IMG/VR virus record: IMGVR_UViG_3300020048_000024
Location: 64,001 to 128,000 of that record
Origin: a virus
DNA length: 64,000 nucleotides
Direction: 5' to 3' (one strand)
In this document: one piece after another, positions 6,200 through 53,389 of the stretch
Position numbering within the stretch: the stretch's first letter is position 1
Layout of the letters: every line of letters begins with the position of its first letter
Notes under the pieces: model-generated
Told to the model about the DNA's origin: nothing
The model's input: only the letters and a program-made list of their open reading frames with translations
Database searches by the model: none
Made by a program: the position numbers and the translations under genes

Positions 6200-9100
6200 A
6201 TGATAGACAAAGAAGAACTAATTCGTCGAAAGAAACTTTGGGAAGCTGGATATTGGGAAATTCCTGATAATCTAGATACTAGTAATTTTAATTTCGATTG
6301 GAGACCGTTTGAGTATGATCGCCCTTATATACATCAATTTGGCACTCAATGGCAAGAAATAGGCGGTCCGAGATTCATTGTTCCGGAAGACGAAGGCGTA
6401 AAATATCAATCAGATCAGCATGCAATAGTTATTGGAGTGATGCAAAACTGGAACGTATTAATTCCAATAGATGAATCGTTTGACTTTAAATGGAGTCCAC
6501 ATCCGCACGAGCCACCGCTAATATATGTATGGGGCAATCAGTGGAATGATGCCATTACTGAGCCTACTGTAGAGTATAGAATGCCGGGTGCTACTGATAG
6601 AAAGTACATGACTGATATGATTGCTACAGTTACTTCTACTACTGATAATTGGAAAGTATTAATTGATAAAGCAACAATTGATCAAAGTTGGAGACCTAAT
6701 CCATACGAGCCGCCGCTAATATATGTATGGGGTAATCAGTGGAATGACGCGGCTACTGAGCCTACTGTAGAATATCATGTAGCTGGTGCTACTGATAGAA
6801 AGTACATGACTGATATGATTGCTACTGTTACTTCTACTACTGATAATTGGAAAGTGCTGATAGACGGAGCTACTATTGATCAAAGTTGGAGACCTAATCC
6901 ATATGATCCCTCTTATATATATGTATTTGGAAATAAATGGAACGATGCAACTATTGAACCTACTGTAGAATATCATGTAGCTGGTGCTACTGATAGAAAG
7001 TACATGACTGATATTATTGCTGATCTGATCCCTGCTATTGACAAATGGAACGTGTTGATAGATGGCGCCAGCATTGATTTTAGTTGGAGACCTAATCCAT
7101 ATGATCCACCGTTAATATATGTATTTGGTAATAAATGGAATGATTCTGCTACTGAGCCTACTATAGAATATCATGCTGATAACGCAACTGATAGAAAGTA
7201 CATGACTGACATTGTTGCTGATCTTATTCCTACAATTGAGAAATGGACAGTGTCTGATACTGATCATCATGACATTTTTGATTTTAGTTGGAGACCAAAT
7301 CCTTTTAGTCCTCCTCAAATTTATCAATGGGAAAACAATGGACCGGTATATACCGAGTATAATGCTACTGAAATTGTACTAGTATCTAATGAAGATGCTC
7401 GATATAGCTATATTGACAAAGTTTCTAAATATTATATCACTACGACGTTAAATGACTTGATAGAGCAACATCCGAATGAGGTTTTTTGGGCATTGAACAG
7501 TGAATTGAATTATAATAAATTTGATTTTGATTGGTCTCCAAATTTAGAAAACTTCAGACATACTAACGTATTCGGAACATCACTGAGTAAAGATGTGTCT
7601 ACATATTACGTCAATGGACCGATGTGGGCAAAAGGATTTAGAGAATTTAATTACGTAGATTATGAACTTGACATTGTTACTGACATTGATATCTTTTATA
7701 TAGATAGAGGAAACAATACTGATCAGTACAAAGAATTACTGTTAAAATTTCCAAAATTACACAAAACTAGATTTGCTAACAGTTGGATTGATACTATTAA
7801 TCGTTGTATAAAAAAATCTACCACTAAGCTTATTTGGGTGTTAAGTAGCGACGTGGACTATAGTGACTTTAAATTTGACTTTTATCCGTCTGAATGGCAA
7901 CGAAAGATGATTCATATTTTTGGAACTCAGTGGTCTCACTGGGGTAATACTTATATGATCAACACGGAAACATTTGACATTGATACTAAGTATCTAGAAC
8001 AAATAGAACATGCTAAAAATATTAATTTTGTCAGACGCCGACGAGCAAAAATATCTCAGTGTTTAAACGACATTATATACATTGACTTTGGAAACAAATC
8101 TGATTCATTATCTCAATTGAAGACTAAGTGTATTGATAGAGAAATAACTATATTATCTTATGACTTAAGTTATGTAAACACGTTAACTCAATGGGCCAAT
8201 AGTAAAACAGATTATGAAATCAAACAAGAACATAATATGTGGGTTTGCTCTAGCTTGTGTGATTACGAAAATTTTGATTTTACATGGGATAGAGATCCAT
8301 ATCAGTTTAGTCAAATTCATGTATTTTCCAGCAAATTTGATAATTCTAAACAGAAATTTGGCGATACGTTTTTTATTAATTTACGTGAGTTTAGGAAAGA
8401 AAGTAATAGTTTAATTAAATTAGAAAATTATAGTGCTTCGGTTAATTATATTGGACATATATCCGTTCCTAGAATACAATGTCCTATATTATATCATGAG
8501 TATGATAGTCAAGCTACTGCTATTAATAATATTTCTGACAGAAATTGGCCATACTATGAATTGATTGTTAAAGATACAGTTACTAATAAACATAGTGTTG
8601 TGCCTAATATGTGGGACTCATCTGAATATGAGATTATCACTACTAGCACAGGATCATCTAGAATTTTTGTTCCAGATGTGGCAATTGATGTAATACATTC
8701 AGAAGTCTATGAGTATCCCAATCTGATAATATCAGAGCCGTTAGATACGTCTAATCCATTGGACATTGTATTCATAAGTAACGGTGAACCATCTGCCGAT
8801 AGTAACTATGAACGTTTATTAGAAATTGCAGCCGCTAATAAATTATCAAATCGTATTGTCAGAGTTAAAGACGTGAAAGGACGTGTCGCTAGTCAACACG
8901 CAGCCGCAAATGTAAGTCAGACTGCATGGTACTTTTTGATCAATGGTAAATTAGAAGTTAATACTGAATTTGATTTCAGTTGGCAGCCAGATAGATTGCA
9001 ACGAGCAAAGCATTATATCTTTAAGGCTATTAATCCAGTCAATGATTTGGAATATGGTCATCAAGCAATCGTAGCAAATAATCGAACACTTACCTTAGAT

Positions 9101-9433
9101 ACAATAGTTCAGGGATTAGATTTTACACTTGACAGTCCACATGAAACTGTAGACGCTAATTGCGGAGTAGCAAGATTTAATACTGATCCATGGACTACAT
9201 GGCGTACAGCGTTTCGAGAAGCGATTAAGTTGAGTTATAATACAGATGAGGCTTCAGTTGATAGATTGAATACATGGCTCACGATTGGCAACGGAGATAA
9301 TGGTGAATGGTCTATCAAAGGTGCACAAGACGCGGTAGCATACTATGATAAAGTCAAGGGCAATTTAACTGAGCTTATGAAGAGTTATGATTGGAAATGG
9401 TTAGAAAAATTATATAAAAAGACTTACTGTTGA
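6200..9433 (+). CDS. Large Trp/Pro-rich repeat protein with C-terminal glycosyltransferase-like domain
   Basis: 66-aa tandem repeats, then degenerate FDFxW modules; C-terminal DIVFISNGE...VKGRVASQHAAA is GT2-like. Confidence 0.55.
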   Translation: MIDKEELIRRKKLWEAGYWEIPDNLDTSNFNFDWRPFEYDRPYIHQFGTQWQEIGGPRFIVPEDEGVKYQSDQHAIVIGVMQNWNVLIPIDESFDFKWSPHPHEPPLIYVWGNQWNDAITEPTVEYRMPGATDRKYMTDMIATVTSTTDNWKVLIDKATIDQSWRPNPYEPPLIYVWGNQWNDAATEPTVEYHVAGATDRKYMTDMIATVTSTTDNWKVLIDGATIDQSWRPNPYDPSYIYVFGNKWNDATIEPTVEYHVAGATDRKYMTDIIADLIPAIDKWNVLIDGASIDFSWRPNPYDPPLIYVFGNKWNDSATEPTIEYHADNATDRKYMTDIVADLIPTIEKWTVSDTDHHDIFDFSWRPNPFSPPQIYQWENNGPVYTEYNATEIVLVSNEDARYSYIDKVSKYYITTTLNDLIEQHPNEVFWALNSELNYNKFDFDWSPNLENFRHTNVFGTSLSKDVSTYYVNGPMWAKGFREFNYVDYELDIVTDIDIFYIDRGNNTDQYKELLLKFPKLHKTRFANSWIDTINRCIKKSTTKLIWVLSSDVDYSDFKFDFYPSEWQRKMIHIFGTQWSHWGNTYMINTETFDIDTKYLEQIEHAKNINFVRRRRAKISQCLNDIIYIDFGNKSDSLSQLKTKCIDREITILSYDLSYVNTLTQWANSKTDYEIKQEHNMWVCSSLCDYENFDFTWDRDPYQFSQIHVFSSKFDNSKQKFGDTFFINLREFRKESNSLIKLENYSASVNYIGHISVPRIQCPILYHEYDSQATAINNISDRNWPYYELIVKDTVTNKHSVVPNMWDSSEYEIITTSTGSSRIFVPDVAIDVIHSEVYEYPNLIISEPLDTSNPLDIVFISNGEPSADSNYERLLEIAAANKLSNRIVRVKDVKGRVASQHAAANVSQTAWYFLINGKLEVNTEFDFSWQPDRLQRAKHYIFKAINPVNDLEYGHQAIVANNRTLTLDTIVQGLDFTLDSPHETVDANCGVARFNTDPWTTWRTAFREAIKLSYNTDEASVDRLNTWLTIGNGDNGEWSIKGAQDAVAYYDKVKGNLTELMKSYDWKWLEKLYKKTYC
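6450..7320 (+). repeat. Four-plus tandem 198-bp (66-aa) intragenic repeats
   Basis: AAAGTACATG recurs at 6601, 6799, 6997 and 7195, an exact period of 198. Confidence 0.95.
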
Positions 9434-9456: not shown

Positions 9457-10704
9457 TCATTGGTCTCTATAAGCCATATTACGTTTTTGTGCTTGAAGAA
9501 CTTCACTACATGGATTAATTTTAGCTTTTGCAAGCAAATCTAAAGTTAGTCGTTCATCTAAACTAAATGCTGCCAGCTGAACCGCAGGAGTGGGCCAGAT
9601 ATTAGCATCAATGATCCATTTTAGTGCATGAACATATTTTTTTACTGCTAGTACTTGAACGGCTTGACTGGGTTTACGAACAGTTTGAAGAACAGACCAT
9701 AGACCATGAATGGATCGATTAACTACCCATAGCTGTAATTCTTCGCTAGGATTTCTTATTCCAGCAATAGCATCGGGATCACGTTTGCAAACTTCTAATT
9801 GAAAATCTTCTGGGGGATTTGGCATGAATCGTATATCTGTTGGATTAGCTAACACCCACTTCTTCTGATTATTCACACTCATATTTCTAAAACGTTCATG
9901 CTTAGAGGTCATGTAATCTTTTGTATGTGTGCCCTGTTCTGTGCTTTTAGCAATTTTGTGTGGCAAGTAATTTGGTCGATTGTGTACTTGTTTTACCACA
10001 TCAATGGCATCTGTACTAAAGAAAACACCTTGATATGGTTCACTTGTATGAATTATACCAAAGCCGTTATCCACAATCCCATCTATTCCAATAGCACGAA
10101 AGAGTTTATTCCATGATACTTCACTAGGCGGAAATTGATTTAACCCTGTAGGGAATTTTTTTTGTGCTTTAACTTTACCTAGTAGTTTTGAAACTTTCAT
10201 GGTTACGTACCAAAATCGACCACCTGCCATATGGTTAATTCTAGCTTTATCCTCTGCACTATTAATTATATTTTCAACTTCATCAACTGATGTTTTCCAA
10301 TCTTTTCCTGATTGTTGACTCCAGTATTCTGCTATCTTTTTATAATAGCCATTTGCTTCTTGATTATCCATTAGATCAATATCAATAATATTACCCTTAC
10401 ATTTGAATATATTGGCATATTCACTTTCTCCGGCAAATGGTAATACTCCCATTGACAAACTATTTGCAACTTTATCAACAACATACGCGGCCGGATATGC
10501 ATATATGCCGATTGGAGTTTTATATTTGCTTCGTGGATTGATACCTAGTTTATCTATTTCAGTAAATGAAATGAATAGATTGGCCACATTCTCTGAATTT
10601 TTAGACACATCACTTACTGCCCTAATCAATTCAGTGTTAGCCGTAAGCTTGGGATTTCGTTCCGGGTTTTTACGTAGTTCTGTTAGAATTTCTGTGATTT
10701 TCAT
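9457..10704 (-). CDS. Putative capsid-internal protein, possible ADP-ribosyltransferase-like domain plus C-terminal helical repeats
   Basis: N-terminus MKITEILTE; GIYAYP, GIDGIVD and EPYQGVFF motifs; about 23-aa PSEELQL-type repeats at the C-terminus. Confidence 0.4.
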   Translation of the reverse strand: MKITEILTELRKNPERNPKLTANTELIRAVSDVSKNSENVANLFISFTEIDKLGINPRSKYKTPIGIYAYPAAYVVDKVANSLSMGVLPFAGESEYANIFKCKGNIIDIDLMDNQEANGYYKKIAEYWSQQSGKDWKTSVDEVENIINSAEDKARINHMAGGRFWYVTMKVSKLLGKVKAQKKFPTGLNQFPPSEVSWNKLFRAIGIDGIVDNGFGIIHTSEPYQGVFFSTDAIDVVKQVHNRPNYLPHKIAKSTEQGTHTKDYMTSKHERFRNMSVNNQKKWVLANPTDIRFMPNPPEDFQLEVCKRDPDAIAGIRNPSEELQLWVVNRSIHGLWSVLQTVRKPSQAVQVLAVKKYVHALKWIIDANIWPTPAVQLAAFSLDERLTLDLLAKAKINPCSEVLQAQKRNMAYRDQ

Positions 10705-11390
10705 GCTGATTTCAAAAGTGCGGAATCTATAAAAACTGGATCAGTTATTACCAATGTACCATCTGATCTAGCCATAACGTTGGCATCGTGAAGATCGGGT
10801 TCAAAATTTCCAGATTTTATCAATGTTTTTGCTATGTCTAGGGCGTCGATCCATTGAGGATGAGTTGATCCCCAATTTATATAAAAGCTACTATCTTTAT
10901 ATTTTGGACTTTTAGTCATATCGCTTGGCATACCTGTATTTCTTAGTACGCTATTTGACCAATTAATTATTCTTATATCATCACTGTTAGTAATAGGAGT
11001 GAGTTTCTCCATTCTAATAGCTGATACTTCGGGAGTAACAGGAACTATTCGTTTACTAATAAATTTGGGCATGTGTGGATTGTCTGTGTGTTTACGAGCG
11101 GTTGATATCCAAGCAGTATAGGCAGTATCGGTTGAGATAAACACTTTAAGAACATAAGATAATTTTGGATGACTCCATACTGTCCCAAAACCGCCTGAGC
11201 CCAATGGGTGAAATCCATTCTTTAGTAATATATCATGCCATTCAACGCCCATAGGATAAGGACTATCACTATCTCTGATTCTGTTAGGAACAGGCAAATC
11301 TTTGATTTTATTTTTAATACCAACTAGTTCTGTCAATTTTTCTTCATCGATTGAGCTATTGGTTTCGGGCAAGAATTCATGTGATTTCAT
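10701..11390 (-). CDS. Protein-kinase-fold protein (paralog 1)
   Basis: GSGGFGTV Gly loop, VLKV lysine, DLHDAN catalytic loop, TDP; start reassigned to ATG 11390 (MKSHEFLPE), 5 nt after ATAAATA. Confidence 0.75.
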   Translation of the reverse strand: MKSHEFLPETNSSIDEEKLTELVGIKNKIKDLPVPNRIRDSDSPYPMGVEWHDILLKNGFHPLGSGGFGTVWSHPKLSYVLKVFISTDTAYTAWISTARKHTDNPHMPKFISKRIVPVTPEVSAIRMEKLTPITNSDDIRIINWSNSVLRNTGMPSDMTKSPKYKDSSFYINWGSTHPQWIDALDIAKTLIKSGNFEPDLHDANVMARSDGTLVITDPVFIDSALLKSA

Positions 11391-11394
11391 ACTT

Positions 11395-11423
11395 GTATTT
11401 ATCCAAAGTAGTTGACATATGAT
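11395..11423. repeat. 29-bp exact direct repeat, copy 1 (late box on minus strand, TTGACA on plus strand)
   Basis: GTATTTATCCAAAGTAGTTGACATATGAT, identical at 12207-12235. Confidence 0.95.
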
Positions 11424-11543
11424 GATAAGTGGTGGTGATGAATACACAAGACCATCAAATGACTCACAAATTGAATCAATAATTGATAAAGCATTGAAAA
11501 ACTTCAATGATATCGGAGTAATTGAAGTGGCGATTAGTAGACT

Positions 11544-12200
11544 TTAAACTATCCAAGGGTCAATGATCACTGGAGTTCCGTCCGCTCGCGCCATGAAGTT
11601 ATACCCATGTAGGTCTAGTTCATATCCCATTTGATTTGCAATGTCATTAAGTCTGACAATGGTCTTGTAAAATACGTGAACTCCTCTAGGGCCCAGTATA
11701 TTCAAAAGTTTGTCCCATGAATTCTTATATCCCCACACTGGGTACGTTAAAGTTTGTGCCACATCCTCAAAGCTCTCGTTAGCCATTGCTCGATCTGCCA
11801 TTTCTTTGCATAGTTTGCCAATGGCACCAATACTATTCAGACGTTCTTGACGCATCTGTATATAAACATGCCCATTCCAATAGAAACTTTCAAAACCCGA
11901 AAACTTAGGTAGAAATGGATTACTCTTATGATTGTTGCAGTACTTGGCCCAACGAAAGAACATCATATGTTCCTTGGAGAATATAGGCTTAGTATTTTCA
12001 TCATTGGGTGCCAGTGATACATTGTTCTGTGTTCCAAATATCTTAAGTACCAATCCAGTTTCTGGTTCTAGAAATGCGGTTTGATCAACACCCTGACCAA
12101 TCTGCTTATAGCCCTTGTCTATAAGATGATCAACGATAGCTGGATCGGTATCGCTGTATTCGTCTAGTATGGATTCACGTAATATTTCAGATAATTTCAT
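11544..12200 (-). CDS. Protein-kinase-fold protein (paralog 2)
   Basis: GQGVDQTAF, VLKI, DLHGYN, IDP; start reassigned to ATG 12200 (MKLSEILRE). Confidence 0.7.
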   Translation of the reverse strand: MKLSEILRESILDEYSDTDPAIVDHLIDKGYKQIGQGVDQTAFLEPETGLVLKIFGTQNNVSLAPNDENTKPIFSKEHMMFFRWAKYCNNHKSNPFLPKFSGFESFYWNGHVYIQMRQERLNSIGAIGKLCKEMADRAMANESFEDVAQTLTYPVWGYKNSWDKLLNILGPRGVHVFYKTIVRLNDIANQMGYELDLHGYNFMARADGTPVIIDPWIV

Positions 12201-12206
12201 TATGTA

Positions 12207-12235
12207 GTATTTATCCAAAGTAGTTGACATATGAT
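12207..12235. repeat. 29-bp exact direct repeat, copy 2
   Basis: Identical to 11395-11423; here TTGACA(12224)-17-TATACT(12247) forms a sigma70 promoter. Confidence 0.95.
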
Positions 12236-12258: not shown

Positions 12259-12444
12259 ATGAGCACAGAAAATTTATTTGATTTTACAAACGTACCTCAG
12301 TCTAAAAAACGGAAAACCATCATCGACGATGTTCGTAATATATTGATTGTGGAATTCTTGGGAGATAAATCCGGAGAATTGCAAGCTAAAAAACTATTCG
12401 AAGAACTAGTGGGTCGTGGTTTAAAAGTGAAGATAATGTCATGA
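12259..12444 (+). CDS. Small hypothetical protein coupled to the ABC-GNAT gene
   Basis: ATGA overlap with the next ORF; directly after a sigma70 promoter. Confidence 0.7.
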   Translation: MSTENLFDFTNVPQSKKRKTIIDDVRNILIVEFLGDKSGELQAKKLFEELVGRGLKVKIMS

Positions 12445-13553
12445 GAACATATGAATTAACATTAAAATGTGATGCGCCAACTGACTTCTATTGTGTCAAA
12501 GCAGCCAACTCGGTTGACTTAGATATTGATAAGAAATTAACACATAATATTAAGATTAGAGCTGATCTTGACACTCCGTACAATGTCGGTCTTATCATTG
12601 GAGCAAGTGGATCAGGTAAGACTACTCTTGCTAAACATATTTGGGGCAACGATTGCTTTGATACACTACTAAAGCCAGACACAGCAGTTATCTCACAGTT
12701 TGATGAATCATATAGCTATGATGAACGAGTGGCATTCTTAAGCGGAGTTGGGCTAGCATCACCCACTTGTTGGATTGCCCCAGCTAAGACATTAAGTAAC
12801 GGTCAACAAGCAAGAGCAGAAGCTGCATTACAAATGGCTAGATTAGACGGTAAGTTTACAGTCATTGATGAATTTACTAGTGTAGTAGATAGAACTGTAG
12901 CCAAAGCAATGGCACATGCGGTACAAAAACATGCACGAAAAACAGGCAAGACCATAGCACTGCTCAGTTGTCACTATGATGTATTAGAATGGTTGAACCC
13001 AGATTGGATCATCGATTGTAATACCCAAGAGTACACTGACCGGAGGTCACTTTGTCGAGGGTTTACCAGAACCGAAGAGCTTGTTTTTGGGATTAGACAA
13101 CTCATTGACAACAAAAGTTGGAAAGTCTTTAGTAAGTATCACTATCTAAGCGACACTCTACCACCAGGGAAAAACTATAGTTTTGGATTGTTTAGTGGAG
13201 ATAATCAGATTGGATTCTGTGCCTTTTCAAATTATGTAATGTGGAAACAAGAACACAAAGATAAGGGTATTCCAATGGTATTACACGCTAATCGAATTGT
13301 AATTCATCCTGATTATTGTGGGTTCGGTTTGGGTGGCAAGTTTACTGATATATGTGCTGATCACTTACAGAATGAAATGGGCTTTGACGTTCAGATCAAA
13401 TTGAGCAGTGCTAGTATGGCTATTTCCCTTAAACGAAATCCACGTTGGGAACTAAGAGAAGTTAAACGAAACATTCATAATATCTGGAGCAATCACGAGA
13501 ATCGTAAGGGTAGAATGGATGTAAAAACGTGGTCATTTAAGTTTCTTGGCTAA
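12441..13553 (+). CDS. ABC-type ATPase fused to GNAT acetyltransferase
   Basis: GASGSGKT, LSNGQ signature, VIDEF, SCH H-loop; C-terminal KYHYL and IVIHPDYCGFGLG acetyl-CoA motif. Confidence 0.85.
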   Translation: MRTYELTLKCDAPTDFYCVKAANSVDLDIDKKLTHNIKIRADLDTPYNVGLIIGASGSGKTTLAKHIWGNDCFDTLLKPDTAVISQFDESYSYDERVAFLSGVGLASPTCWIAPAKTLSNGQQARAEAALQMARLDGKFTVIDEFTSVVDRTVAKAMAHAVQKHARKTGKTIALLSCHYDVLEWLNPDWIIDCNTQEYTDRRSLCRGFTRTEELVFGIRQLIDNKSWKVFSKYHYLSDTLPPGKNYSFGLFSGDNQIGFCAFSNYVMWKQEHKDKGIPMVLHANRIVIHPDYCGFGLGGKFTDICADHLQNEMGFDVQIKLSSASMAISLKRNPRWELREVKRNIHNIWSNHENRKGRMDVKTWSFKFLG

Positions 13554-13931: not shown

Positions 13932-13958
13932 AAATAGGAACTTCGGTTCCTATTTTTA
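13932..13958. terminator. Bidirectional intrinsic terminator
   Basis: AAATAGGAAC-TTCG-GTTCCTATTT followed by T-run, between convergent units. Confidence 0.85.
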
Positions 13959-14504
13959 TTTACGACGCGGTGGTGGCGGAGCAGATGGTCTTTGTACGTG
14001 AACCGGTCTTTGTGGAGGCGGAGCAGATGGTCTTTGTACGTGAATTGGTCTTTGTGGCGGCGGAGCAGATGGTCTTTGAGTGTGACGAACAGGTTCATTA
14101 TAACGCTGAACAGCTCCACGATAATTACCTTGACCGTAGCCGCCGCTAAACTGAGGATTTCCCACCCAGTAGTACGGAGTCCATTGTAAGAATTGTTGAC
14201 GAAGTGGAGGATACCACCAGCGATTGATCCACCAAAATGGAGCTGGCCATCCAACAATAATTGGAGGCATATATTGAATTGCTTCTTCTGGCGGAATGGA
14301 TCTAGGATCATCACCGGGAACAAAATTTTGTGGAATATCATTAACAATCATATTTTCTGGAGGAGAATCTGCCGACTGTGCTTTTGAATCATTAGTGGCA
14401 CCGAGACCAAGTCCAGTAGCAGCCGCTCCGACTGCTCCTTTTAGAAACCCACGACGACTAATTTCGTCTAGTTCTTGTTCTACTAATATTTCGCTTATTT
14501 TCAT
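13956..14504 (-). CDS. Pro-rich protein with MKISEIL leader and twin-arginine signal
   Basis: MKISEILVEQELDE-ISRRGFLKG followed by an Ala/Gly-rich h-region; three 14-aa repeats at the C-terminus. Confidence 0.75.
   Translation of the reverse strand: MKISEILVEQELDEISRRGFLKGAVGAAATGLGLGATNDSKAQSADSPPENMIVNDIPQNFVPGDDPRSIPPEEAIQYMPPIIVGWPAPFWWINRWWYPPLRQQFLQWTPYYWVGNPQFSGGYGQGNYRGAVQRYNEPVRHTQRPSAPPPQRPIHVQRPSAPPPQRPVHVQRPSAPPPPRRK
13970..14085 (-). repeat. Three tandem 42-bp repeats (HVQRPSAPPPQRP)
   Basis: GGAGCAGATGGTCTTTG at 13978, 14020 and 14062. Confidence 0.9.
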
Positions 14505-52471: not shown

Positions 52472-53389
52472 ATGACAATGTTAGATCGTGCCCAAGGATG
52501 TCTACTAGGACTTGCAGTGGGCGATGCAGTTGGCACTACAGTAGAATTCAAAGATCGCGGCACTTTTCCCTTAATGACAGACATGGTGGGTGGTGGTCCA
52601 TTTAGTCTTAAGTCAGGTCAATGGACTGATGATACTAGTATGGCGCTGTGTTTGGGATACAGCTTAGCGGAAAAAGGATTTGATCCACTTGATCAAATGA
52701 CTCGTTATGTAGAATGGTATACAGATGGATATATGAGTTGTACTGGCCGATGTTTTGATATTGGCACGGCAACTAAAGGCGCACTTCGTCAGTTTCAAAA
52801 AGACTCATTAAAAAATCCAATTGCTGGATCTACTCACTTTATGGATGCTGGTAATGGATGCATTATGCGACTTGCCCCTGTGCCAATCATGTATGCTCTT
52901 AATGCAGAGAAAGCAATCGAACTGAGTGGAACTCAATCTACTGTTACTCATGGATCAGATGAATGTGTAAAAGCATCACGTATGTTCGGAGAAATTCTTG
53001 TACGTGCCTTAAGCGAAATGAGTAAGGAAGAAATTTTACGACTTGATATCTCTGAGCCGACTAGCGAATTAAGATCATTAGAAAACATTGCTCGTGGTAC
53101 ATACTTTAACTCAACAGAAAAAGATATACGTGGAAGTGGTTACGTAGTCGAATCATTAGAAGCAGCATTGTGGTGTTTTTATACTACTGAAAATTTCAAA
53201 GATTGTATTTTGAAAGCTGCCAATTTGGGTGATGATGCTGATACTACAGCGGCAATTGCTGGACAAGTAGCAGGTGCATATTATGGTCTAGCTGGCATTC
53301 CCGTTGAGTGGGTAAAACGAGTATCGTGGAGAGATCGTATTCTAGAACTAGCAGCAGATTTGGTAAACAAACAAGAGGATGTAAAATAA
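52472..53389 (+). CDS. ADP-ribosylglycohydrolase (DraG/ARH family)
   Basis: GDA.G, WTDDT, GNG..MR, TH, GDDADT.AA..G. Confidence 0.93.
   Translation: MTMLDRAQGCLLGLAVGDAVGTTVEFKDRGTFPLMTDMVGGGPFSLKSGQWTDDTSMALCLGYSLAEKGFDPLDQMTRYVEWYTDGYMSCTGRCFDIGTATKGALRQFQKDSLKNPIAGSTHFMDAGNGCIMRLAPVPIMYALNAEKAIELSGTQSTVTHGSDECVKASRMFGEILVRALSEMSKEEILRLDISEPTSELRSLENIARGTYFNSTEKDIRGSGYVVESLEAALWCFYTTENFKDCILKAANLGDDADTTAAIAGQVAGAYYGLAGIPVEWVKRVSWRDRILELAADLVNKQEDVK

Follow-up and report, generated by a model that had tools for sequence, protein, structure and literature searches.

What does a large phage gain from three neighbouring genes, two encoding kinase-fold proteins and one a protein of 415 amino acids (aa), whose products all begin with the same short leader peptide? 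The genes lie on the minus strand at positions 9457-12200 of a 64,000-nucleotide (nt) stretch of DNA (the window), which comprises bases 64001-128000 of the 159,889-bp IMG/VR record IMGVR_UViG_3300020048_000024 and has 36.6% G+C. An earlier note on this DNA had read them as a post-translational modification cassette delivered from the capsid. Our analysis places the two kinases (kin1 and kin2) and a third paralog outside the window (kin3) in the T7 gp0.7 (T7K) protein-kinase family and finds the leader far more often than expected. Delivery of pre-made kinases from the phage head is the explanation that we favour.

The source phage and the locus

The window comes from an uncultured T4-like jumbo phage. 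CheckV completeness of the record is 45%, implying a genome of roughly 350 kb, and the phage encodes a T4-type family B DNA polymerase (phrog_262, E 1.7e-187), a gp23-type major capsid protein (PF07068 Gp23, 148.8 bits) and a T4 gp21-type prohead protease (PF03420, Peptidase_S77, 89.8 bits; genome 13401-14039, minus strand). Its gp22-like scaffold protein contains 19 L/I-x-E sites, and the capsid protein, the protease and the scaffold each have one such site inside the first 10 residues. A DNA-level search found no close cultured relative. The features of the locus are as follows:

9457..10704, minus strand: 415-aa protein, whole open reading frame (ORF)
9457..9969, minus strand: C-terminal alpha-solenoid of the 415-aa protein with DUF4116-like repeats, aa 246-415 plus stop
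9970..10704, minus strand: N-terminal domain of the 415-aa protein, aa 1-245, unannotated, possibly an ADP-ribosyltransferase (ART)-like effector
10678..10704, minus strand: leader MKITEILTE of the 415-aa protein (pattern search), a predicted capsid-targeting propeptide with a predicted cut after E9
10701..11390, minus strand: kin1, 229-aa gp0.7/T7K-like mini protein kinase
11364..11390, minus strand: leader MKSHEFLPE of kin1 (pattern search and homologue alignment)
11395..11423, minus strand: 29-nt block with an ATAAATA box, the box 5 nt before the kin1 ATG
11544..12200, minus strand: kin2, 218-aa gp0.7/T7K-like mini protein kinase, divergent paralog with motifs GQG, VLK, D-L-H-G-Y-N and I-D-P-W
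12174..12200, minus strand: leader MKLSEILRE of kin2 (pattern search)
12207..12235, minus strand: 29-nt block with an ATAAATA box, the box 7 nt before the kin2 ATG

All three ORFs and every motif listed in the earlier note were recovered, as was the ATGA overlap by which the kin1 stop is coupled to the start of the 415-aa ORF. Longer frames exist, from a TTG at 11507 and an ATG at 12230. The starts at 11390 and 12200, also chosen in the earlier note, are preferred because homologues align from MKSHEF and because a promoter-like ATAAATA box lies upstream. The 29-nt blocks ahead of the two kinase genes are identical, which likewise upholds these starts, and end in ATAAATAC 4-6 nt before the ATGs. 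Neither kin1 nor kin2 has a Shine-Dalgarno sequence.

Kinases of the T7 gp0.7 family

kin1 contains a Gly loop (GSGGFG), YVLKVF, NPHMPKF and DLHDANVMARSDGTLVITDP, and kin2 contains GQGVDQ, LVLKIF, NPFLPKF and DLHGYNFMARADGTPVIIDP. The two proteins match each other by BLASTP (E 8e-10, 23% identity) and in an hhalign comparison of kin2 with the kin1 family (97.5%, E 6.8e-12), and judged by these alignments they are true paralogs. kin1 matches phrog_15752 (T7 0.7 kinase) at E 9.4e-15 and, by tblastn, 33 phage records mostly annotated as protein kinase or gene 0.7 (e.g., CR8, E 2e-8). The profile of its family aligns with gp0.7 of Citrobacter phage CR8 from the glycine loop through the Lys to DLHxxNxM...VITDPV (hhalign 97.1%, E 4.9e-11). 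kin2 alone had no tblastn match among cultured-phage records and enters the gp0.7 family via the kin1 profile. The previously suggested link to T7 gp0.7 is thereby sharpened to membership in the T7K family.

Residues G64, G66, K82, D199, N204, D217 and P218 are invariant across 19 family members. The spacing D-x4-N-x12-D matches that between catalytic loop and DFG Asp in protein kinases. The Gly loop, the ATP-binding Lys and D-x4-N are present in kin2 and kin3 as well, and the DP motif reads ITDPVF in kin1, ITDPVV in kin3 and IIDPWI in kin2. In the literature, DPV in place of DFG is a hallmark of the family, with the Val less conserved in jumbophage homologues (PMC13645617). kin3 (MKSHEFILKE...) starts 2.2 kb past the window end, directly after a leader-bearing gene:

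Genome 128210-130882 (about 210-2880 bases past the window end), plus strand: 678-aa protein with leader MKITDIISE, then kin3 stop-to-start

The predicted kinase structure fits solved protein kinases over the N-lobe and the catalytic loop. In the Foldseek comparison that the earlier note had proposed as a check, PERK, Src, MEK1 and PKR lead the PDB matches with a probability of about 1.0, and the aminoglycoside phosphotransferase APH(2'')-Ia is listed at about E 1e-3. Sequence profiles and predicted structure bear out the kinase fold. The C-terminal shut-off/DNA-binding domain is absent, as the kin proteins stop 5-12 residues past the DP motif. This domain does not define the whole kinase family, because jumbophage homologues (PMC13645617) and the 242-aa gp0.7 of CR8 are also without it.

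On profile and motif evidence, kin1, kin2 and kin3 are members of the T7K family with intact catalytic motifs and predicted activity. The gp0.7 kinases have been proven experimentally to be protein kinases, and T7K was described in 2026 as a hyper-promiscuous dual-specificity kinase which disarms bacterial defences by mass phosphorylation, the jumbophage homologues being left uncharacterised (PMC13645617). Among 1.84 billion representatives, 4,208 clusters at 50% identity belong to the family at E <= 1e-3, and the kinase is typically the last domain, preceded by variable N-terminal modules. Four to six kinase-domain matches occur in one predicted protein of 800-1,350 aa in P0145, P0149 and P0156, which are either true multi-kinase polyproteins or tandem genes merged in gene calling.

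A leader peptide resembling the T4 capsid-targeting sequence

In the record, 10 ATG starts fit the pattern M[KR]xx[ED][ILFV][ILVF]x[ED], compared with 0.07 expected from the amino-acid composition. The consensus, M-K-x-x-E-[IL]-[IL]-x-E, has nine residues and ends in L/I-x-E. Its carriers include otherwise unrelated proteins of 89 to 678 aa, one of them with a twin-arginine (Tat) signal. The leader codons vary synonymously while the residue classes stay, which argues for selection on the peptide.

There are close precedents in T4, namely a 10-aa capsid-targeting sequence, the L/I-X-E rule and the 7-aa propeptide of Alt (PMC9026906, PMC3012670). The T4 capsid-targeting sequence is MKTYQEFIAE, the occurrence of which is confirmed in 10.1101/2021.01.19.427310. 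The protease gp21 cuts after L/I-x-E, and cleavage was first seen at a Glu-Ala bond (PMC9026906). In the 415-aa family, E9 is kept in 69 of 77 relatives and is followed by A/L-R-[RK]-N-P within a stereotyped stretch, A-R-[RK]-N-P-x-x-N-P-K; given the tag, E9 and then Ala, the predicted cut is the Glu-Ala bond. kin1 has a second L-T-E site at aa 19-21, ahead of the invariant LVGIK motif, and therefore two cuts are possible.

The leader is common among kinase homologues, as 116 of the 148 best kinase-family representatives (about 78%) start with M[KRQ]x2-3[ED][ILFVM]. In homologues P0005, P0007 and P0016, 140-170 residues are inserted between tag and kinase, with the tag still at the extreme N-terminus. 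The kinase of the Salmonella phage Munch starts with MTKQEIF and is leader-like only loosely, and gp0.7 of the podovirus CR8 starts without the leader pattern. The cultured, T4-like Rhizobium phage RHph_I1_18 (MN988519.1; L092 41-2567) encodes two tandem gp0.7-like kinases. The second starts with (M)KSFSEHIAE, almost the T4 capsid-targeting sequence, and the next gene starts with MISFKSHLNE. This phage could serve as an experimental model.

By analogy with T4, packaging of the leader-bearing proteins is well supported, although packaging, cleavage and injection are all predictions. What stands of the packaging-like leader described in the earlier note is thus the enriched pattern, the T4-type head module, the L/I-x-E end, the unrelated carriers and the N-terminal position despite insertions, while packaging itself stays a prediction. 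We found no report in the literature of gp0.7-type kinases as capsid-targeted cargo. Packaged kinases had been called unusual, a view which has to be qualified, since virion-delivered kinases have been predicted in polyvalent proteins (Iyer et al. 2017, PMC5512222); those kinases belong to a different kinase group.

Several observations concern other leader-bearing proteins. A 154-aa leader protein (MQIREIITEVFNSQPYPL...), encoded from genome position 145556 onward on the plus strand, resembles the domain inserted between leader and kinase in P0005. In L010 a 183-aa module forms an ORF of its own; P0146, P0150 and P0155 have it joined to the kinase. Tagged modules seem free to join and separate. 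The carrier with the Tat signal lies in the window:

13956-14504, minus strand: 182-aa proline-rich protein, leader MKISEILVE..LDE then twin-arginine signal (PF10518, E 9e-5)

Once the tag is cut off, the Tat signal of this protein would be exposed.

Expression timing

An ATAAATA box is found 5-9 nt before 15 ATG starts genome-wide, 10 of which belong to leader-like proteins (examples in the window are 11396-11402, 12208-12214, 23146 and 57556). We take this box to resemble the T4 late promoter TATAAATA. If it is a T4-type late promoter, its position suggests late mRNAs with little or no leader. In relatives, AGGAG-type sites occur at many other genes. A scan for sigma-70 promoters and terminators showed no enrichment.

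The 415-aa protein

The predicted model of the 415-aa protein (pLDDT 88) consists of an alpha/beta N-domain of about 245 residues, which contains a long helical insert, and a helical-repeat C-terminus. The C-terminus appears to be a DUF4116-like alpha-solenoid. It matches phrog_5925 (E 4.9e-12), helical-repeat structures in PDB match this region, and BFVD DUF4116 proteins match the model at TMt 0.60-0.78 (e.g., Atu_ph07, TMt 0.78). The protein itself has no match to PF13475 (DUF4116) at E <= 1; homologues P0060 and P0119 match at 2.9e-6 and 7.8e-7, respectively. The family comprises 290 clusters and was found at 103 IMG/VR loci, often as 2-4 tandem paralogs, on contigs up to 500 kb. The fragment holding the window has one copy.

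The motifs GIYAYP (66-71), GIDG (206-209) and E222-P-Y-Q225-G-V-F, which the earlier note had picked out, rank with the best-conserved positions across 77 diverse relatives. Nearly invariant are K52, G54, N56, P57, S59, T63, P64, G66, Y68, Y70, P71, W165, W198, D212, H219, E222 and Q225. In Pfam neither the N-domain itself nor that of 65 diverse relatives had a match, and it had no PDB sequence match. Profiles A1, A2 and A3 gave only chance-level matches to PDB sequences. A search found no longer fused forms of the N-domain, which is weak evidence. The only solved-structure match of the 415-aa protein is an ejection protein of cyanophage A4, the pre-ejectosome chain B, probably gp27 (PDB 9k3a_B, PMC12002296), which is among the closest known systems and sets the protein in the context of injected proteins. 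hhalign of the N-domain profile against A4 gp27 gave nothing, and Pfam on gp27 gave nothing useful.

The earlier note had called this protein ART-like and had graded the call as weak, which it stays. Foldseek against BFVD lists an ART-PolyVal-like protein (E 2.6e-3), a PolyVal ART (E 4.9e-3) and a PARP catalytic domain (E 2.7e-2), with a root-mean-square deviation (rmsd) of about 8-13 A. Neighbours in the ESM Atlas include 13+13 clusters with PF18760 (ART-PolyVal) and others with the AcrIF11 ART, at scores of 0.91-0.93. ART Pfam families had no match in the 65 diverse members at E <= 1, PF18760 gave nothing in the phage genome at E <= 10, and no solved ART was listed across three PDB structure searches, in which the whole-model query was dominated by helical parts. 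Sequence similarity to the Alt family of R-S-E ARTs (T4 Alt, ModA, ModB) was not seen either, as PHROG and Pfam scans of the 415-aa protein gave only unknown-function families on the C-terminal part; no direct comparison with Alt was made.

Of the triad of the H-Y-[ED] clade, His in strand 1, Tyr in strand 2 and Asp/Glu in strand 5, the last two have fitting candidates. Y68 in G-I-Y-x-Y-P is kept in 74 of 77 relatives, and E222, just before a strand, in 76 of 77; we take this arrangement to be like the G-I-Y-F-A and catalytic Glu of PARP. At position 46 in strand 1, mapped by motif resemblance and not by structural superposition, 56 of the 77 have Ser, 11 have Thr and only 4 have His. ART-PolyVal domains are H-Y-D (PMC5512222). 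A canonical H-Y-E or R-S-E triad cannot be placed in the 415-aa protein, which speaks against an ART.

An ADP-ribose-removing enzyme is encoded in the window as well and would merit attention should ADP-ribosylation be used by the 415-aa protein or by the host:

52472-53389, plus strand: ADP-ribosylglycohydrolase (phrog_6572, E 1.7e-76)

In RHph_I1_18, the protein after the tandem kinases looked from its sequence like a possible R-S-E ART; neither Pfam nor hhalign bore this out, and the candidate was dropped.

The kinase neighbourhood as a probable variable slot

The closest relative, whose kinase is 87% identical, has in this slot a kinase, a 107-aa leader protein and a kinase, bounded by an ABC-ATPase/GNAT gene and a 1,000-aa repeat protein. 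Five relatives that carry the kinase, one of them a complete genome of 364 kb, yielded no member of the 415-aa family. A kinase lies within 6 kb of a member of the 415-aa family in 6 of 76 loci, about the level expected from island clustering alone. A conserved kinase and ART operon was rejected on these grounds, and the term cassette used in the earlier note overstates the linkage. As the adjacency of kinase and 415-aa gene is not conserved, the best reading of the region is a variable slot occupied by leader-bearing effectors.

Proposed injection of pre-made kinases and its rivals

We consider it fairly probable, by analogy with T4, that pre-made kinases are injected from the head before phage gene expression. 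The tag would work like the T4 capsid-targeting sequence and bring the protein into the scaffolding core of the prohead, where the gp21-type protease would cut it off at L-x-E. The mature kinase would be carried in the head and ejected with the DNA. Ahead of all phage gene expression it would, like T7K, phosphorylate host proteins of transcription, RNA processing and defence. The 415-aa protein, coupled to kin1 and bearing the same tag, would probably be a second injected effector, with an N-domain that may be a divergent ART-like enzyme and a DUF4116-like solenoid as a possible binding module.

Several points weigh against this explanation. It is built on sequence, profile and structure-model work on an uncultured phage, and we infer not only the steps of delivery but also the substrates and any enzymatic activity of the 415-aa protein. 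The leader overlaps the conserved N-terminal motif of the kinases, h-T-E-L-x-G-[IV]-K, and therefore part of the leader signal in short members could be family-specific sequence and not a tag. The ATAAATA box is just a consensus resemblance, the signs of an ART consist of predicted structures with high rmsd and embedding neighbours, and the linkage of kinase and 415-aa gene is not conserved.

The kinases might also be real but unpackaged, that is, late cytoplasmic enzymes which might, for example, phosphorylate phage or host proteins during assembly or lysis, and whose shared N-terminus would serve another purpose such as efficient translation of leaderless mRNA or stability. The missing Shine-Dalgarno sequences and a box only 5-7 nt from the ATG agree with this, and an A-rich 5' coding end could aid initiation on a leaderless mRNA. 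We nevertheless regard an unpackaged role as unlikely, given that amino-acid classes are conserved while codons vary and that the motif closes with L/I-x-E, the site cut by the protease type which the phage itself encodes; the leader is moreover retained in distant phages and on unrelated proteins, and it is closely like the experimentally defined T4 capsid-targeting sequence. That the kinase-fold proteins phosphorylate small molecules, nucleic-acid precursors or cell-envelope precursors instead of proteins is very improbable. The nearest sequence relatives are the gp0.7 kinases, experimentally protein kinases (PMC13645617), and the top structural matches are Ser/Thr/Tyr protein kinases, which outweighs the presence of APH(2'')-Ia in the Foldseek list, the minimal C-lobe and the absent activation loop.

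For the 415-aa protein the choice is more evenly poised. It may be a non-enzyme, a structural internal-head or ejection protein in which the conserved residues serve folding or assembly and the ART signal is a coincidence of fold, and this is a real possibility which falls short of being probable. Near-invariance of the polar residues K52, N56, T63, Y68, Y70, D212, H219, E222 and Q225 in 77 sequences with 19% mean column identity is active-site-like and argues against it, as do the BFVD and ESM Atlas neighbours, which are repeatedly ART-PolyVal, AcrIF11 or PARP-like. An ART-like enzyme is a tentative assignment that we would not call probable either, and we rank above it the plainer description of an injected protein with no assigned activity.

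Comparison with known systems

The kin proteins share a homologous core with T7 gp0.7 and its Autographiviridae and jumbophage homologues (PMC13645617), including the G-loop, the Lys, D-x4-N and D-P-V for DFG, and their chains, like that of CR8 gp0.7, end shortly after DPV. The likely task is also similar, i.e., to phosphorylate a wide range of host proteins, those of defence among them, during the first minutes of infection. Unlike T7 gp0.7, they have no shut-off/DNA-binding domain and occur as two to three paralogs in a T4-like jumbo phage, and their genes have a late-promoter-like box and a T4-type tag which is absent from podovirus gp0.7. Podovirus gp0.7 is made early after entry, whereas the kin products would arrive as pre-made protein.

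The resemblance to the T4 internal proteins IPI, IPII, IPIII and Alt (PMC9026906, PMC3012670) lies in the short N-terminal tag ending in L/I-x-E (MKTYQEFIAE in T4; MKITEILTE etc. here), which is common to unrelated proteins, in a protease of gp21 type alongside a gp22-like scaffold with many L/I-x-E sites, and in payloads that are diverse anti-host proteins, here by prediction. The payloads differ, being kinases and an unannotated domain here and not small basic inhibitors or the R-S-E ART Alt, and the mature parts have no sequence similarity to any T4 internal protein.

Polyvalent proteins (PMC5512222; PF18760) share the concept of kinase and ART domains arriving with the invading DNA. Their kinases are also without a C-terminal subdomain, and it is ART-PolyVal-like proteins that the structure and embedding searches name as neighbours of the N-domain of the 415-aa protein. 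Here, in contrast, the predicted effectors are separate small proteins with a predicted cleavable tag and not giant multidomain polypeptides. The polyvalent kinases belong to a Verrucomicrobia/Bacteroidetes group and kin1 and kin2 to the gp0.7 group, while PF18760 does not match the 415-aa family, in which the H-Y-D triad is not evident.

If kin homologues are delivered ready-made from the capsid, this would be a second route to a T7K-like early strike, by injection instead of early transcription, and such a route would succeed even where a defence blocks transcription or takes effect within seconds. The T4 capsid-targeting principle would then extend from small inhibitors and Alt to a kinase family abundant in metagenomes. 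A broader proposal, which we put forward tentatively and hold to be somewhat less than an even prospect, is that T7K-like promiscuous kinases, as cargo loaded into the head beforehand, form a large class in T4-like and jumbo phages that has gone unrecognised. They would disarm host defences before phage transcription, and their genes would share variable effector slots with other tagged enzymes, among which would be a new ART-like family whose active site is non-canonical. The leader as defined here is a short portable tag which can be tested for loading cargo into non-model phages, and the 415-aa family is a good target for structure and activity work because it is widespread in large phages and unannotated.

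Genes bordering the kinase slot

Two genes border the slot in the window:

6200-9433, plus strand: 1,077-aa protein with about five tandem repeats of ~55 residues (W-R/S-P-N/H-P-Y/H..PPLIYVWGNQWND..EPTVEY..GATDRKYMTD), no family match
12441-13553, plus strand: 370-aa protein joining an ABC-type ATPase to a GNAT/Mom-like acetyltransferase end (phrog_11143, E 2.6e-70; weak PF25680 Mom match)

The ABC-ATPase/GNAT fusion gene is kept beside the kinase slot in the closest relative, and the 1,077-aa repeat protein borders the slot both in this phage and in L006. In several relatives (L008-L012, L007), a conserved 684-aa membrane protein (M-I/L-KRILLSPWTALLTLAL...) adjoins the kinase gene, either before or after it.

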